A stretch of DNA of 64,000 nucleotides from the NCBI RefSeq assembly GCF_054482525.1, contig NZ_CM137006.1. One strand, given 5' to 3'. The notes under the pieces are model-generated. The model saw only the letters and a program-made list of their open reading frames with translations, did not search any database and was not told the DNA's origin. Position 1 is the first letter of the stretch, and the number at the start of each line of letters is the position of its first letter. Positions 9,361 to 40,257 of the stretch are shown one piece after another. The translations under genes were made by a program, and so were the position numbers.

Positions 9361-9389
9361 CGCAGTGAGGTGCGTGGTTATTTCATTGG

Positions 9390-9470: not shown

Positions 9471-9479
9471 GCAATGGTT

Positions 9480-10815: not shown

Positions 10816-10988
10816 AAAGTTCTTTTGTGTTGCATTGCTGGCGTAAATGTCAGCAATGCAGCATTTCCTCACGATTCTCCTTTGACGATCGCACTTTTTG
10901 CTCGTTATGATGGCGTCGCTAGCCTCAGTAAATCCTTACTCCGGCGGTGCGCAACCCGTGCGCGTGAACCACTATCTGAATGCTCATC

Positions 10989-11921: not shown

Positions 11922-11924
11922 ATG

Positions 11925-11960
11925 AATTACGGATGGCGATACTCTGCCATCCGTAATTAT
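11925..11960. terminator. bidirectional rho-independent terminator between convergent pbpG and dld
   Basis: Hairpin aattacggatggc...gccatccgtaatt flanked by A/T runs. Confidence 0.6.
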
Positions 11961-13675: not shown

Positions 13676-13870
13676 TTTCCACTCCTTGTGGTGGCGAAAA
13701 AATATCACAAACTAGAATAGCGCCTTGTATGACAATTCAGCGAGTGAATATTTTGAAAATTCAGACAATAAACTGAGCATTCTTTTTCTCTCTCCACCAT
13801 GCTTATGGCAAACTACGGTTTTTGCACCATTTTCGCTGCCACGTCGGGCAACAAAGGAAGAAAAATCCAT

Positions 13871-20932: not shown

Positions 20933-21153
20933 CGTCTCACCCTTGCTCGCGAGGTCCCGGTTTAACTTTAGACGCAGTTTTGCGAACCAGGTAGTTTTGC
21001 CCGTTTTTTGTGCATCTATAGGGTGATTTTATTTTTGCCAGGCGATTTTGAGTGATCGTACTCACGAATTCTCATTTTTCTGCAAGAGTTCAAAGAAAGT
21101 TAAACGCAGGCAATGTATGTTACGCGTTTTAAAGGGAAGTGTGGTTTGCGGGT

Positions 21154-22839: not shown

Positions 22840-23555
22840 TTAAAGTCTTAATTGTCGATGATGAACCGTTAGCACGGGAGAACCTGCGCGTATTTTTGCA
22901 GGAGCAGAGCGATATTGAAATTGTTGGAGAGTGTTCAAACGCCGTGGAAGGGATCGGCGCGGTGCATAAACTGCGCCCGGATGTGCTGTTTCTCGATATC
23001 CAGATGCCGCGCATCAGTGGTCTGGAAATGGTGGGGATGCTCGACCCGGAACATCGTCCGTATATTGTTTTTCTCACCGCGTTTGACGAATACGCTATTA
23101 AAGCCTTTGAAGAACATGCCTTTGATTATCTGCTGAAGCCAATTGATGAAGCGCGACTGGAGAAAACGCTGGCGCGATTGCGTCAGGAGCGCAGCAAGCA
23201 GGATGTTTCGCTGTTACCGGAAAATCAACAGGCGCTGAAATTTATCCCTTGTACGGGGCATAGTCGGATTTATTTGCTGCAAATGAAAGATGTGGCATTT
23301 GTCAGCAGTCGGATGAGCGGTGTCTACGTTACGAGTCACGAAGGGAAAGAGGGCTTTACCGAACTGACATTACGTACCCTGGAGAGTCGTACACCACTAC
23401 TACGCTGCCATCGTCAGTATCTGGTTAACCTCGCGCATTTACAGGAGATTCGTCTGGAAGATAACGGCCAGGCCGAGTTGATTTTGCGTAATGGCTTAAC
23501 CGTGCCGGTCAGCCGTCGTTATCTGAAAAGCTTAAAAGAGGCGATTGGCCTGTAA
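22836..23555 (+). CDS. btsR: LytTR-family response regulator BtsR (YehT)
   Basis: Start placed at [15 protein letters not shown]; receiver domain plus C-terminal LytTR domain; 4-nt overlap with btsS. Confidence 0.9.
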
Positions 23556-24698: not shown

Positions 24699-26699
24699 TC
24701 ATCCTTGTTGCTGAAGCATGTGGAATAATTGTTCGCAAAGCAAAACACCGTTATTCATTGCTTCTACCCGTGCCTCGCTTTCTGTATTACAAAATTGTGC
24801 CAACACATGTGCCAGCCGATAAAAACCGACCGCGGTGAGGTCATTCGCCAGCAACTCTGCCTGACCAATAGCACTCTGTTCCTGATAGCGCCAGCCGTTA
24901 TGGAGCAGTTGAATAAGTAACGCCTGGCAGCGCATCAGCAACTGATGAGCGGTAGACGGCACAGGCAGAACGCTGGCAGAAGGTAGCGGTGCCACAGGCG
25001 CAGTTTCTGCGTCCAGCGCCCAGGCGCGGGTTTTGGTCATCATTACCCGTGGTTCCAGTGTCAATTGCCCCTCAACAAAACTGACAAAGCCAGAAACCAG
25101 ACTCACGGGGTCGTCTGTGTGTTGCAAAAGTGCCGCCATGCGTTCAACGGCAAAAGGCGCGCTGGCTGAGGCTGGCAGTGATAAAGTCAGCAGATTATCT
25201 TCACCTTCGCCGCTGATTACCTGCGCATCCAGCGTCTGGCGGCTGCTATCCCAACCGAGTGAAATACACTCAGCGACTGGCAGAATAAATAAGTTATCCA
25301 CCTGATTAAGAGGCCGTATGCAGGCGGGGGGACGCTGGCGTAAATATTCCCGCAAAGCCACAATGCCCGACTGGCGCAATGGCGCGCTCAACATTTGCCA
25401 GGCGTCTGGCGACAGCGGCACAACGCTGCTTAAGCGGTTGCGGGTAGCTAACAACAGCTCGCCATCGGCACTGCGTTTTGCTGCTTGTGAAACAATTTGC
25501 CCACCTGCCAGTGCGCCAGCCAGAAAACTAAACAGCCGACGCGTCGCTGCCGGTGAGTTTTCCTGTTCGCTTCTCGGCCAACTACGCGAAAGATGCAAAA
25601 TACTGCCAGTGTCGGGATCGGTAAACCAGATGCGTAAACCATAATGCTCAATATCCTGCCAGCAACGCATACCTAAAGACACCAGCCGCAGATGATCAAG
25701 CTTTGCTTCTCCGGCAATGCCAGAGCCAACGACCGTGCGCCACGGCACAGGAGGAACTTCACCAACACTGTCGCGCCGGGCCATCTCTTGTGCGCAATTT
25801 AATCGACTGTTTAATGCCGCAAGCTGACGTAAGCATTCTCCGACATGATAGTGGCTGGCGCGGGCGTGGAAGGCATCAACGCTGGCGCGCAGTTGCCGTA
25901 GCGATTCACTCACCCAGCGCCAGTTGCAGCGTTCCGCCGCTTGCTGCGCGCGGCTGAAAGCAGCCTTGTAATGAATAAGCGGCTGGCTGATGCCGCCAAG
26001 CCATAACGCCTGGCTTAATTGCTGAACATATTGACGACACGCGTCGCCCTCATCGTTGGCAAACGGATCGTCAGATGATGTGACGTGTTCGCTGCGCATC
26101 TGCCAGATTAAATGAGTAAATTCCGCTTGCTGCGCTTTGGCCTGGACAAAGGCCTGTACTGCCAGTACGACATGTTCGCAAAGTGTGCCGTCAATACAAT
26201 CACAGCGTGCGAAACGAATGCTGCTGCGGGAATAAAAACGTACATCGCTCATCGGTAAGCGGGCAGAGGGAATTTCGCCCGGCGTACAGAACAACTCAAT
26301 GGTGATGCCTTTAGCGACCAGTGTCTGTGCGCGTTTGCGGGTGGCATCGGGCAGGGTAGCCAGTTCTTCCAGCCAGATTGCCGGATCCCACTCTTCTTCT
26401 TTTTCCGTAGGCTGGGTGGTGGCGCAAAGTCGCTGATAACTTAAAACCAGCATCACGCGATGGCGGCACATGCCGCTGGCCCCGCAGCTGCATTGAGCCT
26501 CTTTCAGTGCCTGACCGTTCGCCAGCTGGGTGCGGACACCGTCACTGAAGGTGGCGATTAAAGCGCCGTTCTCATGGCTGATTTCCGGGACGTTGCCATT
26601 TTCCAGTTCTTTAAGGCTGCGCTTAACAAAACCGGCATTGCTTAACGCCGTCAAAGCTTGTGGTGTCAGTTCTAATAATTCCGGCCGTAGTGAATTCAT
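24699..26699 (-). CDS. yehQ: SWIM zinc-finger protein YehQ
   Basis: 666-aa ORF with two CxC-x(n)-CxH motifs (CSCGASGMCRH and CDCIDGTLCEH); start overlaps yehP stop by 4 nt; the true start may be internal. Confidence 0.8.
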   Translation of the reverse strand: MNSLRPELLELTPQALTALSNAGFVKRSLKELENGNVPEISHENGALIATFSDGVRTQLANGQALKEAQCSCGASGMCRHRVMLVLSYQRLCATTQPTEKEEEWDPAIWLEELATLPDATRKRAQTLVAKGITIELFCTPGEIPSARLPMSDVRFYSRSSIRFARCDCIDGTLCEHVVLAVQAFVQAKAQQAEFTHLIWQMRSEHVTSSDDPFANDEGDACRQYVQQLSQALWLGGISQPLIHYKAAFSRAQQAAERCNWRWVSESLRQLRASVDAFHARASHYHVGECLRQLAALNSRLNCAQEMARRDSVGEVPPVPWRTVVGSGIAGEAKLDHLRLVSLGMRCWQDIEHYGLRIWFTDPDTGSILHLSRSWPRSEQENSPAATRRLFSFLAGALAGGQIVSQAAKRSADGELLLATRNRLSSVVPLSPDAWQMLSAPLRQSGIVALREYLRQRPPACIRPLNQVDNLFILPVAECISLGWDSSRQTLDAQVISGEGEDNLLTLSLPASASAPFAVERMAALLQHTDDPVSLVSGFVSFVEGQLTLEPRVMMTKTRAWALDAETAPVAPLPSASVLPVPSTAHQLLMRCQALLIQLLHNGWRYQEQSAIGQAELLANDLTAVGFYRLAHVLAQFCNTESEARVEAMNNGVLLCEQLFHMLQQQG

Positions 26700-27832
26700 G
26701 ACTGAAGATTCTCCGCAAGCCAGGTCGCCAGTTCGCCCGGCGTCATGGCGGCTATTTGTGCGCCGACATTAACCAGCGCCTGGGCCGTATCGTGGTCATA
26801 GCAAGGTGTTGCGGTGCTATCGAGCGCCGCCAGTCCCAGTACTTTGATGCCGCTCTGGACACACTTTTTCACCTGATGCGTCAGTAATGATGATGAACCC
26901 CCTTCGTAAAAATCGCTCACGAGGATAATGACGCTTTTCGCTGGTTGTTCAATAAGTTGCCGACCATATTCCATGGCACTGGCGATATTGGTTCCGCCGC
27001 CTAATTGCACTTTCATTAATAACTCTACCGGATCGGCAACGTCTGCCGTGAGATCAACCACGCTGGTGTCAAACGCCACCAGATGGGTACGAATACCGGG
27101 TAACTGCCATAAACAGGTCGCCATCACCGCTGAGTGGATCACCGAGTCCACCATTGATCCGCTTTGATCAACCAGTAAGACCAGTTGCCATTGTTCACTG
27201 TGGCGCTTAATGCGGCTGTTAAAGCGGGGGGATTCGATATACAACTTGCCGTGTTGCGGATGCCAGTGTTGCAGGTTGGCGCGCAGCGTACTTTTGAAAT
27301 CAAAGTTTCGCGCCAGTGGAATAAATGAGCGGCGACGGCGATCGCGGACACCAGAAAAAGCCTGACGAACTTCCTTTGCCAGTCGCGCCATAATCTCTTC
27401 AACAACCTGGTGCACTATCCGGCGGGCGGCAGCCAGCACTTCGGGATTCATCAGATGTTTAGTGTGCAAAACGGCGCGTAGCAGGCTTTCAGAAGGCTGC
27501 ATACGTTCCAGCACGTCGAGATTCGTCACCACATCTTCAATGCCGTAGCGCAGTACGGCATCGCTTTCCAGCCGCTCGATCACCTGTTGCGGAAACAGCG
27601 TGTGAATACTGTTGATCCACTTAGGGGTGGTGAGATTTGAGTCACCTAATCCACCGGAGCGTTCACCACGCTGGAGCCGTTCAGGATCGCGCCCATACAG
27701 CCACTCCAGCGCGTGGTCTATCTGCCGGGCATTGTCATCCAGCCCACAAAGGGTCGTTTCTGCCGCTTCGCCAAGAATTAATCGCCAGCGATGTAGCTCA
27801 CGGGTGGTCAGAAGATCGTTCAGTTCAGACAT
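26696..27832 (-). CDS. yehP: von Willebrand factor A (vWA) domain protein YehP
   Basis: Start placed at MSELNDLLTTRELHRW (378 aa); MIDAS-like motif VDQSGSM. Confidence 0.85.
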   Translation of the reverse strand: MSELNDLLTTRELHRWRLILGEAAETTLCGLDDNARQIDHALEWLYGRDPERLQRGERSGGLGDSNLTTPKWINSIHTLFPQQVIERLESDAVLRYGIEDVVTNLDVLERMQPSESLLRAVLHTKHLMNPEVLAAARRIVHQVVEEIMARLAKEVRQAFSGVRDRRRRSFIPLARNFDFKSTLRANLQHWHPQHGKLYIESPRFNSRIKRHSEQWQLVLLVDQSGSMVDSVIHSAVMATCLWQLPGIRTHLVAFDTSVVDLTADVADPVELLMKVQLGGGTNIASAMEYGRQLIEQPAKSVIILVSDFYEGGSSSLLTHQVKKCVQSGIKVLGLAALDSTATPCYDHDTAQALVNVGAQIAAMTPGELATWLAENLQS

Positions 27833-30104
27833 GGAAAACTCCCCAGTGTTGCAGCGATGCCAGTGCCTGCTGTTCGAGTTGTTGATGATGTGCAATGGCT
27901 TGCGGTGGACAATGCAACGGCATTTGCAGCGCTGAAACGGGAAGCTGTGCGAGCTGGTAATGCTCAAGCACCTGATGCGCCAGCGTCCCGCGTTCTCGTG
28001 GTGGTAGCCAGGCCATCGCCGCACGCAAATCGGGCAGGGCGTTAATAAAATCGTCGTCACTCAGTTGATTTAAATGACTACTGAAACCGGCGATAAATGC
28101 CGGCTGACAGGCCAGTTGATGGCGGGCCAGCGCCAGCAAACCGTGCAGTGCCTCGCCGGATTGTGCCGGGGATAATTGCGCCAGCATCGTCAGCGCCGCT
28201 TCGGCACTGGCGTTGGGATGTTCCAGACGCATCAGTGCGCCAAGAGCCGCGCCGCGATCCAGCGCCGAGGCATGAATCGCCTGACTGCGGCGCTCAAGTA
28301 AGGCTACCGCCGCAGAAAGCGAAACGCCGGGTAAATTAACGCCGCTATGTAGATCGCGCAGGATATGGCAAAGCGCCTGCCAGCTATGCAGGTGAGCGTG
28401 AAACTCCTTTTCCTCCGGTCTGCCGTTGGATTCACACAGCCAGAGTGTGCGATCGATAGCCGCGCATAACGTCGTCTGTAATATCTGCGCGCCTTGCATA
28501 CCGCTAATTTCATCCAGCCGCCATAAGGCGTATAGCACTTCCAGCGCCTGGCCCATTTCGGCAAACTGATTTTCCTGGGCGATTAATAATGTAAGTTGCT
28601 CCAGTAATTGTTGACTGAAGGACGCCAGACCCGCTAACGCCGCCTGGCTAAGACATGTGGTGATACTGCCGATTCCACCCGCGTCCAGCATATCGGCTTC
28701 TAATTTATTGCGTGCGGCTTCCTGGAGTGTGGCACCAAAGCAGGCGGCCTCAATTAATGCCGCATGTTGGCTAAGCGGGCGGGTTAATTTCCAGCGTTCT
28801 TCACCGTTGCCTGCAAGTGTCAGTGTACTTCCCTGCTGGCGCACAACCCCTGGGATCTCCAGTATTGCCAGCCGATGTAACACCTGACTTTGCGCTAGTC
28901 CATTGGGGTTAAAGCGATTTAAGGTAAGCTCCGCCGGAAGAGAGATTGCGGTACGTTCCAGTTCGCAGGTGACATCTTTTGGCAGAGGCGGTTGTGGCGT
29001 AGAAGGGGCAAGTTTACCGAATCCGTCACCCGCTAATGTGTCTATCAACGTTAGCAGAATCGGATCGGTATCGGGATGAATAACGCCGCGATAGCTCCAC
29101 GGCAACGGCGCATTCAGGGCTTCTTTAATCAGCGAGCCTGCTATGGCATCCAGCCAGTCAGTGCGTAACGGTAGTGTATGACCGCGCAACTGTGCCAGTG
29201 CCATCGCATGCAGATGAGCGGCAGCCATATCCGCTGTTGAAGCAGGCAAGTGGTGCTGGCGCAAACGGGTAAGAACCGTTTTCAGCAGTTGTTCACCTGC
29301 CTGCTGCAAGCCCCACCGCCAGCACCAGTTTTGCCAGACCGGGGCAGGCATACCGGAAAGGTATCCTGCCAGCACATCAAGGCGCTTTTCACTGTAGGGT
29401 GTGAGATAACAACCTGTAACGGCATCATCCAGTAAGAGCAATTCTGGCGTGTTAATTACCTGCGGACATTCGCGCCACATTTTTGCCAGTGCCGGAGCGT
29501 GCCAGCCACCGCAGACAACTAACACGTCGCCATTATTTTGCTGCATCGCCCATCCAATCCAGCGGGCCATAAAGGCTTCGCGCTGACGATTGAGAGCATC
29601 TCCGGGGGAGTCGCCCCGCAGTTGGGCAAAATAGTGCGCAAGTGCAGAGGGTAATGCAGTTTGCTGCCTTTCATCTTCGAACAAGTGATCCCACAGGGTG
29701 TCGCTGTTATCCATGCGGGTGGCACGCAGCAGCAAGGTCTGGCTTTCCTCTTGCGTATCAGGCGAATCGTCCTCTTCTTCACTCTGCGCCCAGCAAGGCA
29801 AATCGATGAAGTAAGTTTGTGCCTGAATACGACGAGCGGCTTGTAGCGCCTGCCACTCCGGCGAAAATTCAGCAAATGGCGTCCAGGCACCACGCCCGGG
29901 GGCCGCACCGTCCTGATACTGGCAATAACTGTAAATAGCTACCGGAAGCTGGTGGGCTAACAACAGTTCGTCTACCCGGTCATTAAAATCAGCCGGGCCT
30001 TCAATCAACACATATCGTGGCCGCTGGCTTTCGATTAACGATTTCACCAGCCGGGCGCAGGCCGGACTATGATGCCGGATGCCGACAATTAACGGCTCGC
30101 TCAT
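27825..30104 (-). CDS. yehM: large uncharacterised protein YehM
   Basis: Start placed at MSEPLIVGIRHHSP (759 aa); overlaps yehP start by 8 nt. Confidence 0.85.
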   Translation of the reverse strand: MSEPLIVGIRHHSPACARLVKSLIESQRPRYVLIEGPADFNDRVDELLLAHQLPVAIYSYCQYQDGAAPGRGAWTPFAEFSPEWQALQAARRIQAQTYFIDLPCWAQSEEEDDSPDTQEESQTLLLRATRMDNSDTLWDHLFEDERQQTALPSALAHYFAQLRGDSPGDALNRQREAFMARWIGWAMQQNNGDVLVVCGGWHAPALAKMWRECPQVINTPELLLLDDAVTGCYLTPYSEKRLDVLAGYLSGMPAPVWQNWCWRWGLQQAGEQLLKTVLTRLRQHHLPASTADMAAAHLHAMALAQLRGHTLPLRTDWLDAIAGSLIKEALNAPLPWSYRGVIHPDTDPILLTLIDTLAGDGFGKLAPSTPQPPLPKDVTCELERTAISLPAELTLNRFNPNGLAQSQVLHRLAILEIPGVVRQQGSTLTLAGNGEERWKLTRPLSQHAALIEAACFGATLQEAARNKLEADMLDAGGIGSITTCLSQAALAGLASFSQQLLEQLTLLIAQENQFAEMGQALEVLYALWRLDEISGMQGAQILQTTLCAAIDRTLWLCESNGRPEEKEFHAHLHSWQALCHILRDLHSGVNLPGVSLSAAVALLERRSQAIHASALDRGAALGALMRLEHPNASAEAALTMLAQLSPAQSGEALHGLLALARHQLACQPAFIAGFSSHLNQLSDDDFINALPDLRAAMAWLPPRERGTLAHQVLEHYQLAQLPVSALQMPLHCPPQAIAHHQQLEQQALASLQHWGVFHV

Positions 30105-30114
30105 GCATCTTTCC

Positions 30115-31203
30115 TCACGGCAGGCGGTGGCGAGCTTGATAATAAGCCTGCCAGTGAGCTTCTTTATGTGTGGCGACGCGCTGTTCGAAGTAACGGCGCA
30201 GACGCGCGCGATCTTCTTCGTTATCTTTGACGATGGTTCCGGCAATACAGTCCACCAGGTCGGCAGGCTCCCCCGCGCGATTCGCTAAAAACCAGGCGCG
30301 GACACCCACAGCATGGGCCACGTTAACGGCTTCAGCGGTGGACATAATCGCTGTCAGTGTATCCATTGACGTTTTCTTTTCGCCGTTGGCACGCAGATCG
30401 CGGAACGTGCGCACCAGTAATTCCAGTACCGTGTCAGGCACTTTATGCGGAATACCGCTATGGGCCAGCAAACGCGCCGAAGCACTGGCGACCAGTTCCA
30501 GCTCCTGGGCGAAATCCATAATCGGAAAGACAGTTTCAAAATCGAAGCGACGCTTTAGCGCAGCACTCATTTCATTGACGCCGCGATCGCGGGTATTGGC
30601 AGTGGCAATAATATTAAAGCCTTCTCGCGCATAGAGCTGACTGGCTTCACCAGTGAGTTCCGGCACCGTCATTACCCTGTCAGAAAGCATACCTAACAGA
30701 CAGTCTTGTACTTCCAGCGGTGTACGCGTTATCTCTTCAAAACGGACAATTTTGCCGTCGCGCATTCCCTGGTAAAGCGGGGCTGGGACCAGCGCTTCCG
30801 TTGACGGACCATGGTTGATAAGCAGGGCGTAGTTCCAGCCGTACTTGATTTGATCTTCAGTGGTAGATGCGCCGCCCTGGATGGTTAACCCGGCATCGCC
30901 GCTAATAGCGGTTGCCAGTAATTCAGACAGGAGAGATTTTGCGGTGCCAGGTTCCCCCACCAACATCAAACCGCGCCCGGTTGCGAGAGTGACTAACATG
31001 CGTTCGACAGCGGAGGGGCTAATCACGACTTTACGGCTAATATTTTGTGCTTCGTCGCCAAGGATAAAAGCGCGGGCCGCAGGCAAACTTAACTGCCAAC
31101 CTGGCGGGCAAGGTGCGTTATCATTTTGTTTTAATTTTGCCAGTTCATCGGCGTATAACACAGCGGCAGGCGGACGCTGCAGATGATTATTCTGCGGTGA
31201 CAT
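30115..31203 (-). CDS. yehL: MoxR-like AAA+ ATPase YehL
   Basis: Start placed at MSPQNNHLQRPPAAVLYADE (362 aa); Walker A-like GEPGTAKS. Confidence 0.85.
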   Translation of the reverse strand: MSPQNNHLQRPPAAVLYADELAKLKQNDNAPCPPGWQLSLPAARAFILGDEAQNISRKVVISPSAVERMLVTLATGRGLMLVGEPGTAKSLLSELLATAISGDAGLTIQGGASTTEDQIKYGWNYALLINHGPSTEALVPAPLYQGMRDGKIVRFEEITRTPLEVQDCLLGMLSDRVMTVPELTGEASQLYAREGFNIIATANTRDRGVNEMSAALKRRFDFETVFPIMDFAQELELVASASARLLAHSGIPHKVPDTVLELLVRTFRDLRANGEKKTSMDTLTAIMSTAEAVNVAHAVGVRAWFLANRAGEPADLVDCIAGTIVKDNEEDRARLRRYFEQRVATHKEAHWQAYYQARHRLP

Positions 31204-31312
31204 ATATTCATCCCTGAAATGTATTAATGAAATAAACGATATTTTACGCGCAATAAATGTTTGGCGCATTAGTTGTTTGAGCGAAAAATATCTGGAAAGC
31301 AGATCACAGTAA

Positions 31313-31397
31313 ATAAAAAAACCTGCTGGTGAGGCAGGTTCTTTGATTTACTACTTTCAGGCCTAACACCACGGCCTGTGCAACATCGTGTTCCAAC
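31313..31397 (-). ncRNA. orzO: putative OrzO-1 antitoxin sRNA (boundaries inferred)
   Basis: Minus-strand promoter (-35 TTGCAA, 17-bp spacer, -10 TATAAT as revcomp of 31404-31409) and minus-strand terminator hairpin acctgc...gcaggt plus T-run (31313-31340); contains the complement of a 19-nt stretch that recurs in the zorO-1 5' UTR (31543-31561). Confidence 0.45.
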
Positions 31398-31426
31398 GAA
31401 CGAATTATAACCATCGGTGGACCCCG

Positions 31427-31454
31427 TTGCAATTAAGATAATGAGATTTATAAT
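31427..31454 (+). promoter_or_regulatory. putative sigma70 promoter of zorO-1 (TTGCAA-16 bp-TATAAT); palindromic -35 shared with the divergent orzO promoter
   Basis: -35 ttgcaa 31427-31432, -10 tataat 31449-31454; predicts a 5' UTR of about 174 nt. Confidence 0.5.
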
Positions 31455-31635
31455 CCTGACTGTTGGGACGTTGCGCCGGATCGAACCCATTTCAAGTCCT
31501 GGCTACCGGACGGGTGGTGCCGCAGGTAGTGCCCTGATCCGGAGTGCAACATCGTGGTCCAACATACGTAAACCAGTATCGACAGGCAGTGTAAGGGTAA
31601 GGTGCTGGTGTTGCGCTCCTTAATAAGGAGAGCGA

Positions 31636-31725
31636 ATGGACACGCTGACACAAAAGTTAACCGTGCTCATTGCTGTACTGGAGCTATTAGTGGCTCTGTT
31701 ACGGTTGATTGATTTGTTGAAGTAA
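31636..31725 (+). CDS. zorO: type I toxin ZorO-like small hydrophobic peptide (29 aa), copy 1
   Basis: ATG preceded by SD aaggag; translation MDTLTQKLTVLIAVLELLVALLRLIDLLK; assignment to ZorO of E. coli O157 is from memory; below the ORF-track cut-off. Confidence 0.65.
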   Translation: MDTLTQKLTVLIAVLELLVALLRLIDLLK

Positions 31726-31746
31726 TGGGCAAATTGAAACGCAACT

Positions 31747-31774
31747 AAGGGGGAAAACCGCTTCCCCCTTTAAT
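31747..31774 (+). terminator. rho-independent terminator downstream of zorO-1
   Basis: aagggggaaaaccgcttccccctttaat: GC stem followed by T-run. Confidence 0.7.
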
Positions 31775-31921
31775 AAAATGATTACATCTTCCATTAATTC
31801 ACCCGATAACTTTTTTCATATTTATAAATTCATCGATTTTATAATCAACGTACTATTTGGCCGGGATGTGAATAATCATGGTGGGCTATTGGCGAAAAAT
31901 ATCTGGAAAGTAGATCGTAGA

Positions 31922-32006
31922 AAATAAAAGAACCTGCTGGTGAGGCAGGTTCTTTTATTTACTACTTTGATGTTAAGTTACTGATAGTGCAACATGGCAT
32001 CTCAAC
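31922..32006 (-). ncRNA. orzO: putative OrzO-2 antitoxin sRNA (boundaries inferred)
   Basis: Same promoter/terminator architecture as copy 1; pairing segment differs from copy 1 and matches its own UTR target (32156-32174). Confidence 0.45.
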
Positions 32007-32244
32007 GAACGAATTATAACCACCGCTGGACCGTGTTGCAATTAAGATAATGAGATTTATAATCCTGACTGTTGGGAAGTTGCGCCGGATCGAACCCATT
32101 TCAAGTCCTGGCTACCGGACGGGTGGTGCCGCAGGTAGTGCTCTGATCCGGAGTGCAACATGGCGACTCAACATACGTAAACCAGTATCGACAGGCAGTG
32201 TAAGGGTAAGGTGCTGGTGTTGCGCTCCTTAATAAGGAGAGCGG

Positions 32245-32334
32245 ATGGACACGCTGACACAAAAGTTAACCGTGCTCATTGCCGTACTGGAGCTATTAGT
32301 GGCTCTGTTACGGTTGATTGATTTGTTGAAGTAA
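32245..32334 (+). CDS. zorO: type I toxin ZorO-like small hydrophobic peptide (29 aa), copy 2
   Basis: Identical 29-aa translation to copy 1; SD aaggag upstream. Confidence 0.65.
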   Translation: MDTLTQKLTVLIAVLELLVALLRLIDLLK

Positions 32335-32355
32335 TGGGCAAATTGAAACGCAACT

Positions 32356-32383
32356 AAGGGGGAAAACCGCTTCCCCCTTTAAT
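32356..32383 (+). terminator. rho-independent terminator downstream of zorO-2
   Basis: aagggggaaaaccgcttccccctttaat. Confidence 0.7.
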
Positions 32384-32455
32384 AAAGTAATATTCTATTA
32401 GTTGGTTGAATATATTCTGTAGTTTACGATTAAAAATTGCTATTACAGTTTCAGG

Positions 32456-32707
32456 TTATTCACCTCGTAATTTCCGCTCATCAATACACTCATCTCTTAT
32501 ATAAATCAACGCATCATTTATTAGCGGGTCAACATCCTCTCGATCACGTTGATGAAATGTTGGACGTAGCCGGAACCGTTCCAGTCGGTAAACGGAACCT
32601 GTAAATAATTCAGAGCATTTATGGATCTCAAGTCTGAAGGAAAACGGATCTTCAGGTACAGGGACCTCATAATTGTAAATAGCGACCAGCTCTTTTTGCA
32701 CGCTCAT
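32456..32707 (-). CDS. small hypothetical protein, possibly YehK-like
   Basis: 83-aa ORF directly downstream of yehI on the same strand; identity not confidently recalled. Confidence 0.45.
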   Translation of the reverse strand: MSVQKELVAIYNYEVPVPEDPFSFRLEIHKCSELFTGSVYRLERFRLRPTFHQRDREDVDPLINDALIYIRDECIDERKLRGE

Positions 32708-32767
32708 CGCTTTTCCCGATGGTAAGTCGTGTTGATAACGGGCAGTCGCATCACTGCCCGTTGTGTT

Positions 32768-35700
32768 TTAATGGAAAATGACGTCGGGTGCGCTTAACGC
32801 CTCACTCAAATCAAACACATCAAGTTCGGCAAAAGTGACAGATTTATTGTCACGGTATACATGAAGAGAACGGAAGCTCATTAGCGCTTTGCTATCAACA
32901 TTGTAGTGGTTAAAACCGGATGAAAACTTAAGGACCAGCCGGTACTCGCCCAGGTCATAGACAAATGCGTTCTCATAGCCTGACTCCCAGCCTTTGTATC
33001 GCATTCCCATAAGTTGCCCAACGGTAGCAGATTTACCTTCCCAGCGATTCAAACTATTACTGGCTGACTCGTCAGGCGTGAGCAGTACTGTGCGCCGTGC
33101 CAATTGGCGAAAAGGCGGCATAATTTCGTAATCGGCAAAAAGCTGTGCAAACTCACTGCGCATTTCTGCTGCCATTTCTAACGGGTGGGCAATGCCAATC
33201 AGAGCATCGGCAGGCAGGTCAATTGGCTCATCTTGCTCATTGCAGAACTCCCCCTCAGCGGCCACACGAAAGGCGTTGAGTAAACGACGCGGTTCATTTG
33301 CCGGATAAACACCCCATATTAATCGCTGAGTAACCAGACGGGTAAAGGGATGATTAACAAACAGAGAATGAAAATCTGCCAGCGACCAGCGTCGGGTGGT
33401 GCGCAGGGCAGTTTCAAGACGCGGGAGCAGGTTTTTGCTCACCTGAGTGGCATCTTTTTTTAGCCCTTTTAGTCGGGCCAGTGCCTCGGGTGCTTTCAGT
33501 TGATCGTCATCGGCGCGCAACCGGGGAACGCTTTTCTGGCGAACGTTTTGCTGATCAAAGATAACCGGGTTAAGGTTTTCATCGAAGCGAACGGTAAATT
33601 GCCGTGGACCAAAATCAAAAATCAACGCCTGCGGATCATCAAGACCCAGTGTTGGGACTAATCTGTCCGCTAACTGTTCCTGGCTTAGCCCTCGATTTTC
33701 TGCGACCACCTGAAGAAATTCCGCCGCGTTATCACGTAAGGGGCGGGATTTCGCCCGTTGCGATATATGATGCAGCTGTATCAGTGCCATATCATTATTC
33801 ATCTGAGTAAGGATGTTCAGGCCGCTGACGGCACGGGCAGATTTGCCTTCCTGTGGCCAGGCAAGGATCTGTGTTGTTAGATCCCGTGCCGTGCTTTCGT
33901 CGCCAAAGAGACTTAACGCCAGAAATGCCCAGTTGTCTTTTGCGGGAGCACCAGCTTGTTGCCACGCGGTGAAAAGATCCCAGGCAAAGGCTGCCAGCGT
34001 TTGCGGCTGGCAAAACGTTTTCAGCTGTTCCAGTCCGCTATAAAAACGTCCGCCCTGGGTAAAGCGCAGCATTTCGCCGATAATTTCCAGAGCGTCATCA
34101 GTAACAGGTTGATTATTCGTGATAAGGCGCGGCCTGGACCACATTGCCGGCTGCCAGAAATCAGGGGCTTTTGGAATGCGTGTCGGGTAAATCTCTATTG
34201 GACTCTGTTTAAGTAATTGCTCCAGGGCAGGCCATACATCTTTACGCTGCCAGCGGTTTGCCACGGTTTGCAGTAACTCGCCATGTCCCTGTTCGTAAAG
34301 TAAACGCAGGGCAAGTAATGCAGCTTCGCTATTATCGCTGGATTTGGTGAAGACAAGAGGGATAAGTGCAGTAGCTGTATGTTCCGGCCATTGTAAAATC
34401 CACTGGCGGGCCAGATCTCGCTGCGCCGCGAAACGTCGCCAGACGCGGGCAACGGGCAGGGCCAGTTCGGTTGCGCCGAAATTTAAAATTAACGGAAATG
34501 TTTCTTTTGGACGATGTGAAAAAGCCAACAGCAGACCTGGTAGAGCATCCAATCCGAAGATACTGAGAAAATAGTCCTCACCCGCAGACAGATGCTTTTT
34601 CTCATTGATACGTAGCCAGAAAGTCAAAGCCATCTCACGCGGCAACTGCGCCAATAAATACAGGTTCCAGATACTCTTTTCCCGACGATAGCGTGAGTAG
34701 CTGTCATTTTCCCATATGTTAATTAACACTTCTACGTGACCGCTGTGAAGCGCCTGTTCTGCTAATTGAGCTTCCGGGGAGCTCCAGCCATTCATGATCT
34801 CTTCAACCCGCCCTGGGTAGTAATGCCACTGAACAATGAGTGAATTGCGTGCAGCATCCAGTTTTCCGGGGAGTATATAATTCAAAAACAGCCATACATC
34901 ATCTCCAAAACCCAGCTCCTGTAGTACAACTCGTCCACTTTTTTGTTCCATGCGTTCCGCAAGAGATTCCGTGCTGAAATAACGGGCAGACGCAGTGGCG
35001 GCAAGCCTCTCTCGTTCGCCTGGTTGCCAGTAAACTTGCGGCGTTAATTCGAACGGTGCCAAATCAAGACGTGGAACTGTCATTTTTTTCTTACTACGCC
35101 ACGGTGGTGAAACGAGGATTTCAGGCATTTGGCTGTTATCGGTGCTATCAATAACCGTTTTGGACGGTGCCGATAAATAACTATTCAGCATTGCCCGGGC
35201 TTGAGTACTTAACCACGGCATCACCTCTTCTGCCAGTTGTGGCTGCGATGCCATCAGCGTTTGTAACAGCGTACGCCAGTATTCATCGCGTGCTTTTTGC
35301 TGTGCAGGCAGCTTTTTGTCTTCAATGATTGGATAACCAGGGCGCGCAGGTGGTTCTTTTAACGCCAGCAGTTCTGCTAATGCGGCGAGCGTCGCATGGG
35401 GGAAGTTTTTACTGTATTTAGCCACACGTTGCAGGCTGGGTTTGTTTTTATCAGCAACTAACAGCAAGGTGCGGATGACTTGCGGATGGTTAATTTGTAC
35501 CAGCAGACTGCCGCAATCTTCTTTATGGGCATACATCGCGAGGCGCGGAACGGCTGCCAGTCCTTGTTCGCGCAAAAGGGCGGCGCAGGCCGCGTAGCCG
35601 AAGCGGTTTTCTTGTGACATGTAGCTGGCTTCGCGATCGCTAAATACGTCCAGGCCCCAGTATCGTTCGAGTTTTTTTACCGCCGTATTATCAGTAGCAA

Positions 35701-36400
35701 CGACCTTTAACCACTCCTTTGAATGGAGACTTGACCGGGAGCTTTCAAAACTGGCGAGTTCATTGGCTATTTCAGGTTTTTCCGGGAGGATCAGCGCAAT
35801 AAAAGGACGGCGAATTTTGGGTATTCCTGGCAGTGCGGCAATGAGTTTATCGGCACAACGCTGCCAGCAACTTTCCTCTGCCAGCGACAGATGCTTACGC
35901 AAACGGAGATCGAAATCGTTATAGGTCGCGGAGCCATAACCGTAGCTATAGTCCTCGTCCTGATACTGCAAAGTGACGACCAGTGAGTCACTCTCATAAC
36001 GCCGCGCAATGCACTGACGCGATATCACTACATCCGTCGCATATTCCAGCCCCTCTTGTTGCACGATTTCATCAAGTAACTGCTGGCTGTCATTTTGCGC
36101 GATACAGATCAGAGCCGCCATGGTAAGGGCTGGGATTGACGGTTTATGCTCGCCAGTCAAATTGATTGCCTGCTGGATGGCGGACTGCCACTCCAGTGAG
36201 CATTTATCATAATTCCAGGTGATATTTTCCTTCTGGCCTGCTTGTTGTAGTAATTCATCTCCCAATGTCTGGATGAGACTTCCAGTGATAACGGACACTG
36301 GTTCGCCCGGCCAGCGACGATGACTGAGCGGCGTTTTGCCTTTTTTATATTTCAGTTCCAGTTGGGCGTTATCCGCCAGCCACGGTAATTCCTTGTCCAT
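32768..36400 (-). CDS. yehI: large DUF4132-family protein YehI
   Basis: 1210-aa ORF; shares long blocks with the adjacent MolR-like ORF (FAWDLFTAWQ.AGAP, LDFGPRQFTV.FDE, RLIWGVY). Confidence 0.85.
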   Translation of the reverse strand: MDKELPWLADNAQLELKYKKGKTPLSHRRWPGEPVSVITGSLIQTLGDELLQQAGQKENITWNYDKCSLEWQSAIQQAINLTGEHKPSIPALTMAALICIAQNDSQQLLDEIVQQEGLEYATDVVISRQCIARRYESDSLVVTLQYQDEDYSYGYGSATYNDFDLRLRKHLSLAEESCWQRCADKLIAALPGIPKIRRPFIALILPEKPEIANELASFESSRSSLHSKEWLKVVATDNTAVKKLERYWGLDVFSDREASYMSQENRFGYAACAALLREQGLAAVPRLAMYAHKEDCGSLLVQINHPQVIRTLLLVADKNKPSLQRVAKYSKNFPHATLAALAELLALKEPPARPGYPIIEDKKLPAQQKARDEYWRTLLQTLMASQPQLAEEVMPWLSTQARAMLNSYLSAPSKTVIDSTDNSQMPEILVSPPWRSKKKMTVPRLDLAPFELTPQVYWQPGERERLAATASARYFSTESLAERMEQKSGRVVLQELGFGDDVWLFLNYILPGKLDAARNSLIVQWHYYPGRVEEIMNGWSSPEAQLAEQALHSGHVEVLINIWENDSYSRYRREKSIWNLYLLAQLPREMALTFWLRINEKKHLSAGEDYFLSIFGLDALPGLLLAFSHRPKETFPLILNFGATELALPVARVWRRFAAQRDLARQWILQWPEHTATALIPLVFTKSSDNSEAALLALRLLYEQGHGELLQTVANRWQRKDVWPALEQLLKQSPIEIYPTRIPKAPDFWQPAMWSRPRLITNNQPVTDDALEIIGEMLRFTQGGRFYSGLEQLKTFCQPQTLAAFAWDLFTAWQQAGAPAKDNWAFLALSLFGDESTARDLTTQILAWPQEGKSARAVSGLNILTQMNNDMALIQLHHISQRAKSRPLRDNAAEFLQVVAENRGLSQEQLADRLVPTLGLDDPQALIFDFGPRQFTVRFDENLNPVIFDQQNVRQKSVPRLRADDDQLKAPEALARLKGLKKDATQVSKNLLPRLETALRTTRRWSLADFHSLFVNHPFTRLVTQRLIWGVYPANEPRRLLNAFRVAAEGEFCNEQDEPIDLPADALIGIAHPLEMAAEMRSEFAQLFADYEIMPPFRQLARRTVLLTPDESASNSLNRWEGKSATVGQLMGMRYKGWESGYENAFVYDLGEYRLVLKFSSGFNHYNVDSKALMSFRSLHVYRDNKSVTFAELDVFDLSEALSAPDVIFH

Positions 36401-36409
36401 GCTCTTTCC

Positions 36410-39400
36410 TTATTCAAACAGGGCTTCAATATCGTTAATTAGCTCGCTGGCGGTGATGGCATCGAGTACGGAGAGCTGCGCTTCCTGTGTTGAATTACTC
36501 CTCCAGCCATAGCTTTCTGCTTTGCCTTCCCATAGCCACAGCTTGCTTAAGATTTGCTCGGCACTCAGTTCGGCTGGTGACATACCCACCGCAAAACCTT
36601 CATCGATTTCCATGATTAACGACCAGCGGCCCAGAGGTTTGATCATCCAGCCGATCCAGCCTGCATCCAGCGGGGTGCCCTTTATCCAACCTTTATTCGC
36701 CAGTCCCATGACCCGACCGCTCGGGCATTTTCTGCCTGCCCAGCGGATCAATTCGCTGGCATTGCGCTCGGTTTCTGTCAGGGCGTAACTGTTACGGTCG
36801 AGCTGGCGAAACGGCGGTAGCAGTTCGTAGTCGGCAAAAAGCTGACCAAAGGCGGCAGCATCCGTGGGTGATATTTCCAGAACGTGAGGAATACCAACAG
36901 AGATATCGCCTTCCGGCGGGGTGAAAAGATCATCGTCAGCGGTGCTGTAGCTGTTATCTTCCGCCACGCGAAAGCAAGCCAGTAGCTCGTTTTCGGCGCT
37001 ATAAACGCCCCAAATCAGACGGCGGGTTAAGTGACGAACCAGCGGATGCTCAACCAGGAAGAGCTGAAAGTTTTCCGGCGACCAGCGGCGGCGCAGGCAC
37101 ATGGCGGATTCCAGCCTTGCTACCTGCTGGGCGGCGACGGTACGCGCATCTTTTTTCAGCAATTTGTAGCGGTTAACAGCATCGTTCGCCTGTGATTCAT
37201 CATCGCTTTTATTGGGTTTAGGTAAGTCTTTCAGGCGGCTGCCGGAAACATCGCGCACAAACGGTTTTAAGGTTTCATCAAAGCTGACGGTGAACTGCCG
37301 TGGGCCAAAATCCAGCAGCAGCGAACCGTTATCATCCAGACCGAGATCCGGTGCTAACCGGTCTTCAAGTTCCGCCACCGTGAGTTCGCGGCTCTCGGCA
37401 ATGTCGGCAATTTTTTCTTTCGCCCGCTCCTGTAAGGCTTTGAATTTCAGTTTCTGGGCGATGCCGTTAAGCTGCATCAGGGCGATATCGCTGCCGATAG
37501 CAGCGAGAATATCCAACCCAACGGTGGCACGTTTATGCTGAGATTCGCCAGGCCAGGCGCGGATTAATGGCGTCAGTTTGCGGGCGGCGTCATCGTTACC
37601 GAGAACGCCTAACGCAGTGAACGCCCAACTCTCTTTCGACGGCGCGCCAGCGGTCTGCCAGGCGGTAAACAGATCCCAGGCAAATTCAGCCAGTGAGTCG
37701 GCGGTACAGGCATCTTTCACCTGCAATAATCCCGGATACAGCGCCTCCTCCTGATGGAAGCGGAGCATTTCACCGAGGTGCTGGAGTGCGCTATCGGGCA
37801 GTGATTGGGCGCTTGCTTTTAATACCGGGCGGTTCCAGAGCGATGGCTGATAAAAGGCCGGAAGAGTGGGGATTTTTGTCGGGTGATTATCTAAGGGATC
37901 GAGCGCAAGCAGAGCGTTCACCGCGTCTGTTACTTCCGGCTGGTTATAACGCCGGGCGATTTCTTGCAGTAATGGCTGATGACCGTTTTCGGTAAGCATA
38001 CGCAAGGCAGCGCGGGCGTTATCCTGTGCTTCACCGGATTTGCCGAGCGCCGAAGGTAGCAGGCCGGTAATGGCGTGTTCCGGGTATTTCAGCAGCCAGG
38101 TGCGGGCGTCTTGTCGTAGGGTTTTGAGTTTGTTGAAGGCGCGGGCGATCAGTGGCGCTAATTCGATAGCCGCAAAATATTGTGCTACAGGCAGAGCTTC
38201 TTGTGGATAGCGTGAAAAGGAGTGAATAAAACCCTGTAACCCAGTGAGTTGCAGGTGCGTCATGACAAACTCGACACCGACGTGTGGCTCTTTACTGAGG
38301 ACATTCCACGCCTGCGCTGTCTTTTCGATAGGCAGGGTGGCTAACATGTAAAGCTGCCATTCCCGTTGATAGGAGTGCCAGAAGGTTTTAAATTCGCTGA
38401 TCAGCGCGGAATAATGTCCCCTTTGCCAGAGATCTATAGCAGCATCAGGCGCTTTCATATACTGGCCATTATTCCAGCGATTGAAACCCAGACGTGCCAG
38501 GTAGTTCTGAATATCCTCTTTTTGGCCGATGTCTATTTGATGTGCGTGCCAGCGATGCCTTGCATGAATCTCTTTTTCTGCCGTCTCGGTCAATGTGCAG
38601 CATGACTCCAACGATAATGGCGTTAAATCCAATACCGGTATAACAGATTTTTTCTTTTTCGAAAGCCAGGGCGGTGAGACTAATACGGCAGGCAGTAGAT
38701 CGGCGCAGGCATGGTTTGAGGGCTGTGTCAGTTGTTGCAGGCATGCTTTCAGCACTGCAACTGCGGGTGTTGAGAGCCAGGGAGTGACCTGTTCTGCTAG
38801 TGCCGGTTGCGAGATAAGCATCGTCATTAGCATAATGCGCCAACTATTCTCTTCTTTTTGCGCAAGAAGTTCCGCCAGTGCCGCCAGTGCCGTGTGTGGG
38901 AACGCAGCGCAAGCCTTAGTCATTCGTTCATGGCAGCGTTTAGTTTTGCCAGACACACGTATAAGTAGCATTAATGCTTGTGGGTGATTGATCTCTGCGA
39001 GAATACTTCCGCAAAGATCAGCATAAGCATAGGGGGCGAAGCGAGCGATTCCGGCAATCCCTTGCTCCTGCAAAACGGTGACATTCCAGATGCAACCATG
39101 GTAATAGTCATTAAAAAGGTCGTACGCGCAATAAGATTCCAGTGCTTTGAGCAAGGAAGATTCTTGTACAACAAGTTTCAGCCATTCAACAGTTTGGATA
39201 TTTTTCTGCTCCAGTAACCGTCGTGCGATTTCTTCTGCAATCTCCGGGCGTTCCGGTAGCATTAGCGCTACCATCGGTTGTTGAACGGGAGGAATATCAG
39301 GCAAAGCTGTAATGAATTTATCTACACAGCGTTGCCACAAAGTTTCTTCTGCTAGAGCCAAATGTTTACGCAGTCGAACGTCAAAGGGGGTAACACAATG

Positions 39401-40159
39401 TGCATGGTTTAATAATGGCTGAAAAGTAATGTGTATGCTTATTCTGTGATAAGTGCAATCGAACGAGATATATTGCATGGCAATAAACATATCCACGGCA
39501 AATTCTAGTCCGTAGACATAGACAATTTCATCCATGAGTTCAGGGCATTCGTCCCAGAATTTACGTGAAACCAGAACAACCTGTACAGCCAACGCAGCAG
39601 GAGAAAGTGGACCATTAGCGAGAGCTTCATTGATATTCTGCTGCCAGTTAGCAGAACATGCACTGAAATCGTATGTTGTTATTTTTCCTGATAGATTATG
39701 AATATCCTGACCTAAATTCATAAGGAGGCTGTCTTGTGGTTCGCTTACAGCATCCCCAGGAAAACGTCGGGAAGGTAAGGCCTCCTGAGACTTTTTCTCC
39801 GATAGATGGATAGTGGAATCATCTGTCAGCCACGGGCATGGTGTCTCAGCAGGTTCAGCAACCATACTTTGGTCAAATACGACTGTGGTTTCTGCCACGC
39901 CAGTTGTATCTACTTCGATCGTTTCTATTTTGATTGCGGGTTGGGATGGCGAAGATAATTCTTCCACATACCCCTTCTTCACCTTCTCCGCAATCAGCTT
40001 CAGTCCCGCTTTTTCCGCCGCTGCTGCATCCGCAAAGCTTTTTACCTGGTTTTGCCCTTTGGTGCCAACTTTTCCCCAACAGATATGCAACTCGTTTCCC
40101 TGTTGCTCCACCGCCCAGAATTTATGTGATTTTTCGTCCTGAAAGATAAAGTGCCTCAT
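36410..40159 (-). CDS. molR: WGR-domain / DUF4132 protein MolR (YehH), intact
   Basis: 1249-aa uninterrupted ORF; N-terminus MRHFIFQDEKSHKFWAVEQQGNELHICWGKVGTKG resembles a WGR domain; K-12 carries a split pseudogene. Confidence 0.8.
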   Translation of the reverse strand: MRHFIFQDEKSHKFWAVEQQGNELHICWGKVGTKGQNQVKSFADAAAAEKAGLKLIAEKVKKGYVEELSSPSQPAIKIETIEVDTTGVAETTVVFDQSMVAEPAETPCPWLTDDSTIHLSEKKSQEALPSRRFPGDAVSEPQDSLLMNLGQDIHNLSGKITTYDFSACSANWQQNINEALANGPLSPAALAVQVVLVSRKFWDECPELMDEIVYVYGLEFAVDMFIAMQYISFDCTYHRISIHITFQPLLNHAHCVTPFDVRLRKHLALAEETLWQRCVDKFITALPDIPPVQQPMVALMLPERPEIAEEIARRLLEQKNIQTVEWLKLVVQESSLLKALESYCAYDLFNDYYHGCIWNVTVLQEQGIAGIARFAPYAYADLCGSILAEINHPQALMLLIRVSGKTKRCHERMTKACAAFPHTALAALAELLAQKEENSWRIMLMTMLISQPALAEQVTPWLSTPAVAVLKACLQQLTQPSNHACADLLPAVLVSPPWLSKKKKSVIPVLDLTPLSLESCCTLTETAEKEIHARHRWHAHQIDIGQKEDIQNYLARLGFNRWNNGQYMKAPDAAIDLWQRGHYSALISEFKTFWHSYQREWQLYMLATLPIEKTAQAWNVLSKEPHVGVEFVMTHLQLTGLQGFIHSFSRYPQEALPVAQYFAAIELAPLIARAFNKLKTLRQDARTWLLKYPEHAITGLLPSALGKSGEAQDNARAALRMLTENGHQPLLQEIARRYNQPEVTDAVNALLALDPLDNHPTKIPTLPAFYQPSLWNRPVLKASAQSLPDSALQHLGEMLRFHQEEALYPGLLQVKDACTADSLAEFAWDLFTAWQTAGAPSKESWAFTALGVLGNDDAARKLTPLIRAWPGESQHKRATVGLDILAAIGSDIALMQLNGIAQKLKFKALQERAKEKIADIAESRELTVAELEDRLAPDLGLDDNGSLLLDFGPRQFTVSFDETLKPFVRDVSGSRLKDLPKPNKSDDESQANDAVNRYKLLKKDARTVAAQQVARLESAMCLRRRWSPENFQLFLVEHPLVRHLTRRLIWGVYSAENELLACFRVAEDNSYSTADDDLFTPPEGDISVGIPHVLEISPTDAAAFGQLFADYELLPPFRQLDRNSYALTETERNASELIRWAGRKCPSGRVMGLANKGWIKGTPLDAGWIGWMIKPLGRWSLIMEIDEGFAVGMSPAELSAEQILSKLWLWEGKAESYGWRSNSTQEAQLSVLDAITASELINDIEALFE

Positions 40160-40257
40160 TCTGCATCCCTGTAATTTTATCCAGTTGAATGCTGATGCTA
40201 CCAGTATTTATGCGGGTTAGAGAGAGACAAAATCGCAAGAAAACAACTTTAGGAATT

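Follow-up and report, generated by a model that had tools for sequence, protein, structure and literature searches.

Several bacterial systems are built on a MoxR-clade AAA+ ATPase that works together with a von Willebrand factor A (vWA) protein. In the pairs CoxD-CoxE(-CoxF), NorQ-NorD, CbbQ-CbbO and RavA-ViaA, a hexameric ATPase of the AAA_5/MoxR type is combined with a MIDAS-bearing vWA adaptor that grips the client, and these pairs are linked to an enzyme client, namely CO dehydrogenase, NO reductase, Rubisco and, for RavA-ViaA, fumarate reductase/lysine decarboxylase. All characterised MoxR-vWA pairs listed by Kaur, Burroughs, Iyer and Aravind (eLife 2020) are assembly chaperones, and the same study describes four MoxR-vWA ternary conflict systems. 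AAA_5 and MIDAS also occur together in midasin (Rea1/Mdn1), a single eukaryotic polypeptide of 5000 aa with six fused AAA modules, which acts on pre-ribosomes and pulls protein factors off a large assembly. Here, we describe a seven-gene cluster of Escherichia coli, molR-yehI-yehK-yehL-yehM-yehP-yehQ, in a 64,000-nucleotide stretch of DNA (NCBI RefSeq assembly GCF_054482525.1, contig NZ_CM137006.1), hereafter called the window, to which coordinates refer unless another locus is named. All seven open reading frames (ORFs) of the cluster lie on the minus strand.

The genes have been known as annotated y-genes, and the system that they form is best placed within the MoxR-vWA kind. With the systems of Kaur et al. 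2020 it shares a MoxR-clade ATPase and a vWA protein with a CoxE-type N-terminus; both have obligatory extra large components, one of them diversifying, and both are found mostly in large-genome soil bacteria (Actinomycetota, Myxococcota and Betaproteobacteria). It differs in that its vWA protein, YehP, has no C-terminal effector region and in that effector-associated domains, caspases and trypsins are absent; SWIM, WGR, TraB, YehL and the DUF5682/DUF4132 partners are not mentioned by Kaur et al. 2020. The assembly pairs have the same ATPase and MIDAS adaptor, but the yeh cluster has no linked enzyme, and instead has a DUF5682 and a SWIM protein as obligate partners together with variable solenoid paralogues. 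Neither a client metalloenzyme nor a CoxF/XdhC-like insertase was conserved next to the cluster in 80 loci. Unlike in midasin, the ATPase and the MIDAS protein are separate, and nothing ties the cluster to ribosomes.

A preliminary description of the locus, made from its sequence, had treated molR and yehI as one conserved module with yehLMPQ and had proposed a phylogenetic co-occurrence check. One genome per species was scanned with patterns derived from a YehM alignment, which returned at least 545 species. The best 80 YehM-anchored loci, from Gamma- and Betaproteobacteria, Myxococcota, Actinomycetota and Acidobacteriota (counted as five phyla), were analysed with flanks of 10 kb by searching their six-frame ORFs with the E. 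coli proteins and family profiles. All 80 kept yehL, yehM, yehP and yehQ in this order on a single strand, and of the 71 that extended far enough to hold yehQ, 69 encoded YehQ. Of the 75 loci in which at least 3.5 kb preceded yehL, 72 had a gene of DUF4132, the family of MolR and YehI. Gene content and order thus recurred and an independent distribution was not seen, which bears out the proposed module. DUF4132 genes occur in tandem, with one to at least five copies, usually upstream on the same strand and often extending past the 10-kb flank; two Burkholderia loci instead carry the gene on the downstream side of yehQ. Overall their copy number ranges from 0 to at least 5, while L, M, P and Q are single-copy. 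The tight junctions reported for the window are general, with annotated overlaps of 1-40 nt in Iodobacter, Bacillus, Sinorhizobium and Spirillospora. Clustering of 3323 unassigned flanking ORFs from the 80 loci returned no further conserved family beyond genus-level synteny, and the system is therefore self-contained.

Individual loci extend this pattern. With D denoting a DUF4132 gene, the order is D-L-M-P-Q on plasmid p322 of Bacillus mycoides (Bacillota), D-D-D-L-M-P-Q in Spirillospora and D-D-L-M-P-Q on plasmid pl1 of Iodobacter, where the cluster adjoins type I restriction-modification genes, insertion sequence (IS) elements and an integrase; a Sinorhizobium plasmid carries the rearranged order L-M-D-P-Q, with the DUF4132 gene between yehM and yehP. 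Plasmids of Iodobacter, Sinorhizobium, Agrobacterium, Streptomyces and Bacillus carry copies of the system, and Rhodococcus has a solo DUF4132 gene. A profile search of 1.84 billion representatives placed DUF5682, the family of YehM, in 4093 clusters at 50% identity (1482 at E ≤1e-30), and the top matches included full-length YehM~YehP fusions in four separate 50%-identity clusters and one YehM~YehQ fusion. At the level of sequence, the rearranged orders and natural fusions confirm functional linkage. We concluded that L, M, P and Q probably constitute an obligate, physically assembling core, and that its usual partners are the DUF4132 proteins, which are multi-copy and separable. Gene content and order in these genomes show one self-contained, horizontally mobile system in at least six phyla and not a chance neighbourhood.

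Three neighbourhoods have contents of their own. On a Hymenobacter plasmid (Bacteroidota), positions 7183-15422 of the locus encode DUF5691 (1009 aa), an AAA ATPase, a 203-aa ORF, DUF5682 and VWA, with no annotated SWIM or DUF4132 gene; compared as a single sequence, the DUF5691 protein gave no significant match to the YehQ and DUF4132 families. Beside the Spirillospora cluster, on the other strand (20556-23483), lie a second, different MoxR-like ATPase, a DUF2201/DUF2201_N vWA-metallopeptidase pair and a metallo-beta-lactamase-fold gene. Upstream of the Sinorhizobium cluster (23-10010) is a run of small genes that includes the SMI1/KNR4, DUF1963, YcxB and DUF6389 families, which we take to resemble the immunity gene arrays of polymorphic toxins.

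A link to phages was also considered and rejected. Six PHROGs entries (phrog_29006, 31592, 30700, 33984, 20839 and 36602) are full-length and near-identical to E. coli YehQ, YehP, YehM, YehI and MolR, and these probably stem from mis-delimited prophage regions. The link was rejected because real phage genomes are without YehM: a collection of 50,697 phage genomes holds no real homologue and gave one weak match on an unverified contig. This match (MT835988.1, an unannotated 14-kb fecal 'Bacteriophage sp.' record; positions 1438-3000, 27.6% identity over 515 aa) could be either contaminating bacterial sequence or a genuine relative carried by a phage.

The domain assignments of the preliminary description, for which a hidden Markov model search had been set beforehand as the refuting test, hold in a Pfam scan for YehL, YehP, YehQ, MolR and YehI. 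YehL is a MoxR-type AAA+ ATPase (Pfam AAA_5, 2.6e-34) with the Walker A motif GEPGTAKS and the Walker B motif RFEEITR invariant or nearly so in 81 sequences; motifs further downstream are likewise almost without variation. By sequence, its nearest solved structures are the AAA modules of midasin (6.6e-10) and MoxR 2r44; it has a weak Pfam match to bpMoxR (E 0.0024), and its best NCBIfam matches, GvpN and MadB, are far below the curated cut-offs. YehP is a CoxE-type vWA protein (Pfam VWA_CoxE PF05762, 4.8e-70, aa 151-372) that ends with the vWA domain, without a C-terminal extension, and its MIDAS is intact, with D221-Q-S-G-S225, GGGT291 and D317 conserved in 78 sequences; a PDB sequence-profile search with it returned nothing. 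A swarming phenotype of a yehP knockout is cited in the literature. At yehP codons 286-292 (window 26950-26990) the sequence of the window alters a Shine-Dalgarno-like GGAG, and the frameshift may therefore be weaker in this strain. YehQ had been credited with two SWIM zinc fingers. The first (PF04434, residues 56-88, E 1e-3) stands, with ligands C70, C72, C78 and H80 invariant in 39 sequences; the second, at 160-183, is weaker (E 0.12) and keeps its Cys/His ligands only in enterobacteria. Beyond SWIM the protein has a long C-terminal region, and a profile search found no relatives in the PDB. No hydrophobic segment compatible with a membrane span occurs in any of the six cluster proteins.

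YehM, described earlier as lacking any recognised domain, proved to match Pfam DUF5682 nearly end to end (residues 20-715, 7.5e-97), which is its sole Pfam match. A structure model built from 44 sequences (predicted local distance difference test score, pLDDT, 89; predicted template modelling score, pTM, 0.82) predicts an N-domain of about residues 1-240 followed by a helical, winged-helix-like scaffold. In this model the N-terminal ~240 residues are predicted to adopt the alpha/beta fold of TIKI, TraB, PrgY, ChaN and erythromycin esterase, with similarity at the shared-fold level. The motifs G8-I-R-H11, E35 and G199-G-W-H202 do not vary among 44 sequences that span five phyla, and the two GxxH motifs follow predicted strands E5-9 and E194-199. 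This GxxH/E/GxxH placement parallels G38xxH41, E67 and G249xxH252 of E. coli YbaP (TraB family), as matched by inspection and without a scored alignment. The relationship, as modelled, is one of fold and motif only, and the Pfam scan gave no TraB_PrgY_gumN (PF01963) match to YehM. The two-GxxH site is the only candidate for a catalytic output in the cluster, putatively peptide or ester hydrolysis. From the TIKI/TraB/PrgY/GumN/ChaN/erythromycin-esterase/HopBA1 superfamily YehM differs by some 500 further residues and by its work with a MoxR-vWA pair, with which no known member of that superfamily is associated.

MolR was correctly identified as a WGR plus DUF4132 protein with YehI as its paralogue. 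Its WGR domain (aa 5-67, Pfam PF05406, 3.4e-17) is a bona fide one of the type found in PARP and in stand-alone bacterial WGR proteins, with profile matches to 2ra8 (6.1e-22), PARP3 (1.8e-4) and also the PARP1 WGR; unlike PARP proteins, MolR has no PARP catalytic domain, its WGR precedes a 1100-aa solenoid and DUF4132, and the WGR is optional in the family. The conserved alpha/beta C-terminal DUF4132 region (Pfam, 9.3e-50) comprises aa 973-1158 and runs further. YehI matches DUF4132 at 1.2e-46, lacks WGR and is 39% identical to MolR. A model of MolR residues 58-1249 from 73 sequences (pLDDT 89.3) contains a disordered post-WGR linker, a mixed N-terminal module, a HEAT/ARM-like solenoid of ~600 residues and the C-terminal alpha/beta region; fold searches returned generic solenoids only, and a PDB profile search with the family gave nothing besides the WGR domain. 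Invariant or near-invariant columns cluster in the C-terminal ~330 aa, where they include H981, H1035, Y1054, P1059, F1060 and Q1062 (numbering of the trimmed protein; add 57 for MolR), the one exception being a mid-protein motif, P433, L436, W441. Only two architectures occur among 120 relatives, DUF4132 alone or WGR with DUF4132, and about half of the paralogues carry the N-terminal WGR. The molybdate-regulator meaning of the old name molR was rejected, with no support in sequence, domains or neighbourhoods.

Within E. coli the two parts of the cluster evolve differently. Nonsynonymous to synonymous substitution ratios (dN/dS) between the window strain and K-12 were 0.026 for yehL, 0.116 for yehM, 0.084 for yehP and 0.112 for yehQ, with 0.040 for metG as a flanking control; yehI has the highest value in the cluster (0.185) and a dS of 0.225, about twice that of its neighbours. 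These values indicate purifying selection on yehLMPQ and yehI, and together with the conserved ATPase and MIDAS motifs they mark the system as functional. The MolR alleles of three strains share 26-57% identity over residues 100-400 and 92-100% over the last ~550 residues, and the 5' half of molR reaches at least 80% coverage in only 153 of 5426 complete E. coli genomes. The number of DUF4132 genes per E. coli strain is two or three, some being pseudogenes; DETEC-S586 has a third (6435-9743 of its locus). A third tandem gene upstream of molR was seen in some E. coli, Escherichia sp. and Klebsiella genomes, and the copy number therefore varies within species and genus. molR is broken in K-12 and MLI104K2, and K-12 yehQ stops at a TAG in codon 615 (GAG in the window), with loss of the last 52 residues; the broken molR and truncated yehQ may explain the absence of K-12 phenotypes.

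Regulation also bears on molR. The best CTG-N10-CAG site of the region, a LexA-type box, lies 8 nt upstream of the molR start codon, overlaps the ribosome-binding region and is one mismatch from a core of the CTGT-N8-ACAG type. molR is among the LexA-regulated genes with a 'known SOS box' (PMC6590174), and from the sites found SOS control of molR appears specific to Escherichia. BglJ-RcsB activates the molR promoter (PMC3950696). In hns/stpA mutants the repression of yehL and yehM is lifted, and H-NS occupies the intergenic region (PMC3686432). Depletion of DdrO in Deinococcus radiodurans strongly induces DRA0166 (DUF4132) and DR2173 (WGR), both members of the DdrO DNA-damage regulon (PMC8533742).

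The features of the locus are listed in Table 1. The seven ORFs are at the coordinates and in the common orientation given by the preliminary description, and the junctions are likewise as described, with overlaps of 8 nt at yehM/yehP and 4 nt at yehP/yehQ and a 10-nt gap at yehL/yehM; molR and yehI are 9 nt apart. The cluster region is 100% identical in E. coli strains 19KM1776 and PCN033. A small ORF reported upstream of yehL is indeed present as yehK. It is neither intact nor conserved: it is annotated as a pseudogene with an internal stop in the window (the K-12 copy is intact, 105 aa), it was present only in the two Escherichia loci among the 80, and it has no similarity to small ORFs at the same position in Variovorax and Hymenobacter. 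By its distribution yehK is Escherichia-specific and outside the conserved system.

Table 1. Features of the molR-yehQ region, with positions in the 64,000-nt window
Feature	Positions	Strand	Description or basis
molR	36410-40159	-	1249 aa
yehI	32768-36400	-	1210 aa
yehK	32354-32707	-	pseudogene, internal TAA
yehL	30115-31203	-	362 aa
yehM	27825-30104	-	759 aa
yehP	26696-27832	-	378 aa
yehQ	24699-26699	-	666 aa
LexA (SOS) box AACTGGATAAAATTACAGGG	40167-40186	-	best CTG-N10-CAG site in 16-kb region
Two tandem zorO/orzO-type type I toxin-antitoxin units	31315-32334	both	Rfam RF02083 and ORFs
OrzO-P RNA 1	31315-31390	-	Rfam RF02083, 91.9 bits
OrzO-P RNA 2	31926-31999	-	Rfam RF02083, 90.2 bits
ZorO-type ORF 1	31636-31725	+	29 aa, ORF call
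ZorO-type ORF 2	32245-32334	+	29 aa, ORF call

The zorO-orzO insertion had been placed beside the cluster; it lies inside, in the yehK-yehL spacer (31204-32353), and consists of two tandem copies of a unit of ~611 nt that are 92% identical. Both OrzO-P RNAs exceed the RF02083 gathering score of 60, and the two hydrophobic ZorO-type ORFs on the opposite strand encode the same peptide, MDTLTQKLTVLIAVLELLVALLRLIDLLK. The units are absent from K-12, in which the gap is 306 nt. Over 5,426 E. coli genomes the coverage of the spacer falls into classes of about 100%, 90% (574 nt) and 44%, which suggests that genomes carry two, one or no copies of the unit. IS421 is inserted in the cluster region in one genome, and TnMB1860, a blaCTX-M-15 transposon, in a sublineage of ST131 (PMC9334617). 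With zor-orz, IS421 and TnMB1860, the region is a recurrent insertion site.

Taking the evidence together, we tentatively propose, at somewhat less than an even chance, that the cluster encodes a MoxR-vWA remodelling engine that acts on diversifying DUF4132 client or sensor proteins in genome surveillance or conflict. YehL would form the usual MoxR hexamer and YehP would be its vWA adaptor; YehM, a natural fusion partner of YehP in some lineages, would be a scaffold and YehQ a further partner, so that the four proteins would make up an ATP-driven engine with the DUF4132 proteins as clients. The DUF4132 C-terminus, with its invariant His and a D-Y-E...QPF.Q loop, may offer a common handle for this engine, and one possibility is that an acidic DUF4132 residue is bound by the MIDAS ion of YehP, by analogy with midasin or CbbO. 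The strain-variable N-terminal module and the WGR would give each paralogue its ligand specificity, for example for nucleic-acid ends; ATP hydrolysis would toggle the solenoid between an inactive and an active state, and the two-GxxH site of YehM would be the candidate catalytic output. MolR hypervariability, paralogue arrays, pseudogenisation, plasmid carriage and SOS/H-NS control together point to a conflict or surveillance role. The most likely role is the sensing of foreign or damaged nucleic acid, and a housekeeping role is less likely. A stronger form, in which the cluster represents a widespread and hitherto unrecognised cytoplasmic surveillance or immune class, with interchangeable, hypervariable WGR-HEAT-DUF4132 sensors of foreign or damaged nucleic acid that are armed or disarmed by a midasin-like split AAA_5/MIDAS engine, a TIKI-like YehM output and SOS wiring in E. 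coli, is a bolder proposal that we consider doubtful.

A number of observations weigh against this proposal. The defence or conflict architecture ascribed to the locus in the preliminary description found indirect support in the features just named, i.e. hypervariability, paralogue arrays, pseudogenes, plasmids and the SOS box; direct support was not obtained: the PADLOC families (2023 database, E ≤0.01) gave zero matches for all six proteins and no toxin-type effector domain was found in the cluster components. Nor is a nuclease, protease or other toxin-type effector domain fused to DUF4132 in any of the 120 relatives. In NCBIfam the only matches of the six proteins were sub-threshold ones to GvpN, MadB, McrB and cobaltochelatase, together with one to the WGR segment of a Leptospira family. 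The third components of the systems of Kaur et al. 2020 (VMAP, iSTAND, FtsH and the beta-propeller fused to vWA) are absent from the six proteins in the Pfam scan. yehLMPQ is present in 5202 of the 5426 complete E. coli genomes (96%), single-copy and at a fixed locus; defence genes do not usually behave in this way. Housekeeping genes flank the cluster on the chromosomes of Serratia, Variovorax and Chitinivorax. In the same small sample of neighbourhoods, type I restriction-modification, IS and integrase genes adjoin the cluster on the Iodobacter plasmid, and SMI1/KNR4 and DUF1963 genes lie near it on the Sinorhizobium plasmid. A search upstream of the clusters in 36 further proteobacterial loci returned no LexA-type box. 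Two fusion loci, L-(M~P)-Q, have no adjacent DUF4132 gene, and the core may therefore have other clients. The YehM fold assignment rests on a predicted structure; PDB sequence and profile searches with YehM and with its N-domain were empty, and the hhalign comparison of the N-domain with the YbaP family was not significant (probability 0.8%), a weak test in that the YbaP alignment is shallow (≥65% identity).

Among the alternatives, the most probable is a housekeeping chaperone or maturation system, in which the MoxR-vWA pair would assemble or reactivate a complex, or insert a metal cofactor, and the DUF4132 solenoids would be substrates or scaffolds. The best Pfam match of YehP to VWA_CoxE and the MoxR/AAA_5 assignment of YehL are in keeping with it, as are the function of all the characterised pairs in Kaur et al. 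2020, the near-core and fixed E. coli locus, the purifying selection and the housekeeping neighbours in three genera. However, no metalloenzyme, XdhC/CoxF-like or other family is conserved beside the cluster in the 80 loci, the phyletic pattern is patchy with some copies on plasmids, and within-species identities as low as those of MolR residues 100-400, variable copy number and frequent pseudogenes would be unexpected for a housekeeping client. We regard this alternative as rather unlikely.

A role in DNA-damage response or repair is a little less probable again. WGR and SWIM would bind damaged DNA, the solenoids would clamp or scaffold it and the MoxR-vWA pair would load or remove them, as an SOS-induced maintenance function. 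The LexA box before the molR ATG and the listing of molR as an SOS gene (PMC6590174), the WGR matches to PARP1 and PARP3 and the DdrO-dependent induction of the two Deinococcus radiodurans genes all agree with such a role; SOS control is, however, also typical of toxin-antitoxin and anti-prophage functions and so cannot separate the readings. The repair role is opposed by the lack of the box in the 36 other proteobacterial loci, by the roughly half of DUF4132 paralogues that have no WGR, by a hypervariability within species that is not normal for repair proteins, and by the absence of a linked nuclease, helicase or ligase.

That two unrelated units, molR-yehI and yehLMPQ, merely lie side by side in Escherichia, or that the locus is a decaying relic, is very improbable: the halves are 1.1 kb apart in the window strain with the zor-orz copies and a pseudogene between them, they are regulated separately (BglJ-RcsB and LexA at molR, H-NS at yehL), molR is a pseudogene in K-12 and some other strains, and fused-core variants without a DUF4132 neighbour and the solo Rhodococcus gene exist, but the adjacency of DUF4132 and yehL across phyla, the position of the DUF4132 gene inside the Sinorhizobium core and the purifying selection on yehLMPQ and yehI speak otherwise, and the cross-phylum linkage largely refutes this reading.

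In the library searched, no paper assigns a function to the genes, in agreement with the preliminary description, and none reports their linkage across phyla, the fold of YehM, the fusion proteins or the hypervariability of MolR. The cluster comprises seven of the least understood genes in the best-studied bacterium, on 15 kb of near-core chromosome. Treated as one system, they become a concrete unit in the E. coli 'y-ome', a fixed four-protein engine with diversifying WGR/DUF4132 partners. The predicted TIKI/TraB-like fold of YehM would be a first structural and mechanistic handle on the large DUF5682 family, under a conflict or a chaperone role alike. If the chaperone role is true, a widely distributed and as yet unknown client complex is implied. 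If the proposed conflict role is true, the cluster would represent a new class of bacterial immunity based on a MoxR-vWA pair, its sensor logic of hypervariable solenoids with an optional PARP-type WGR would be without a described counterpart, and the broken molR and truncated yehQ would explain why no phenotype has been seen in K-12.

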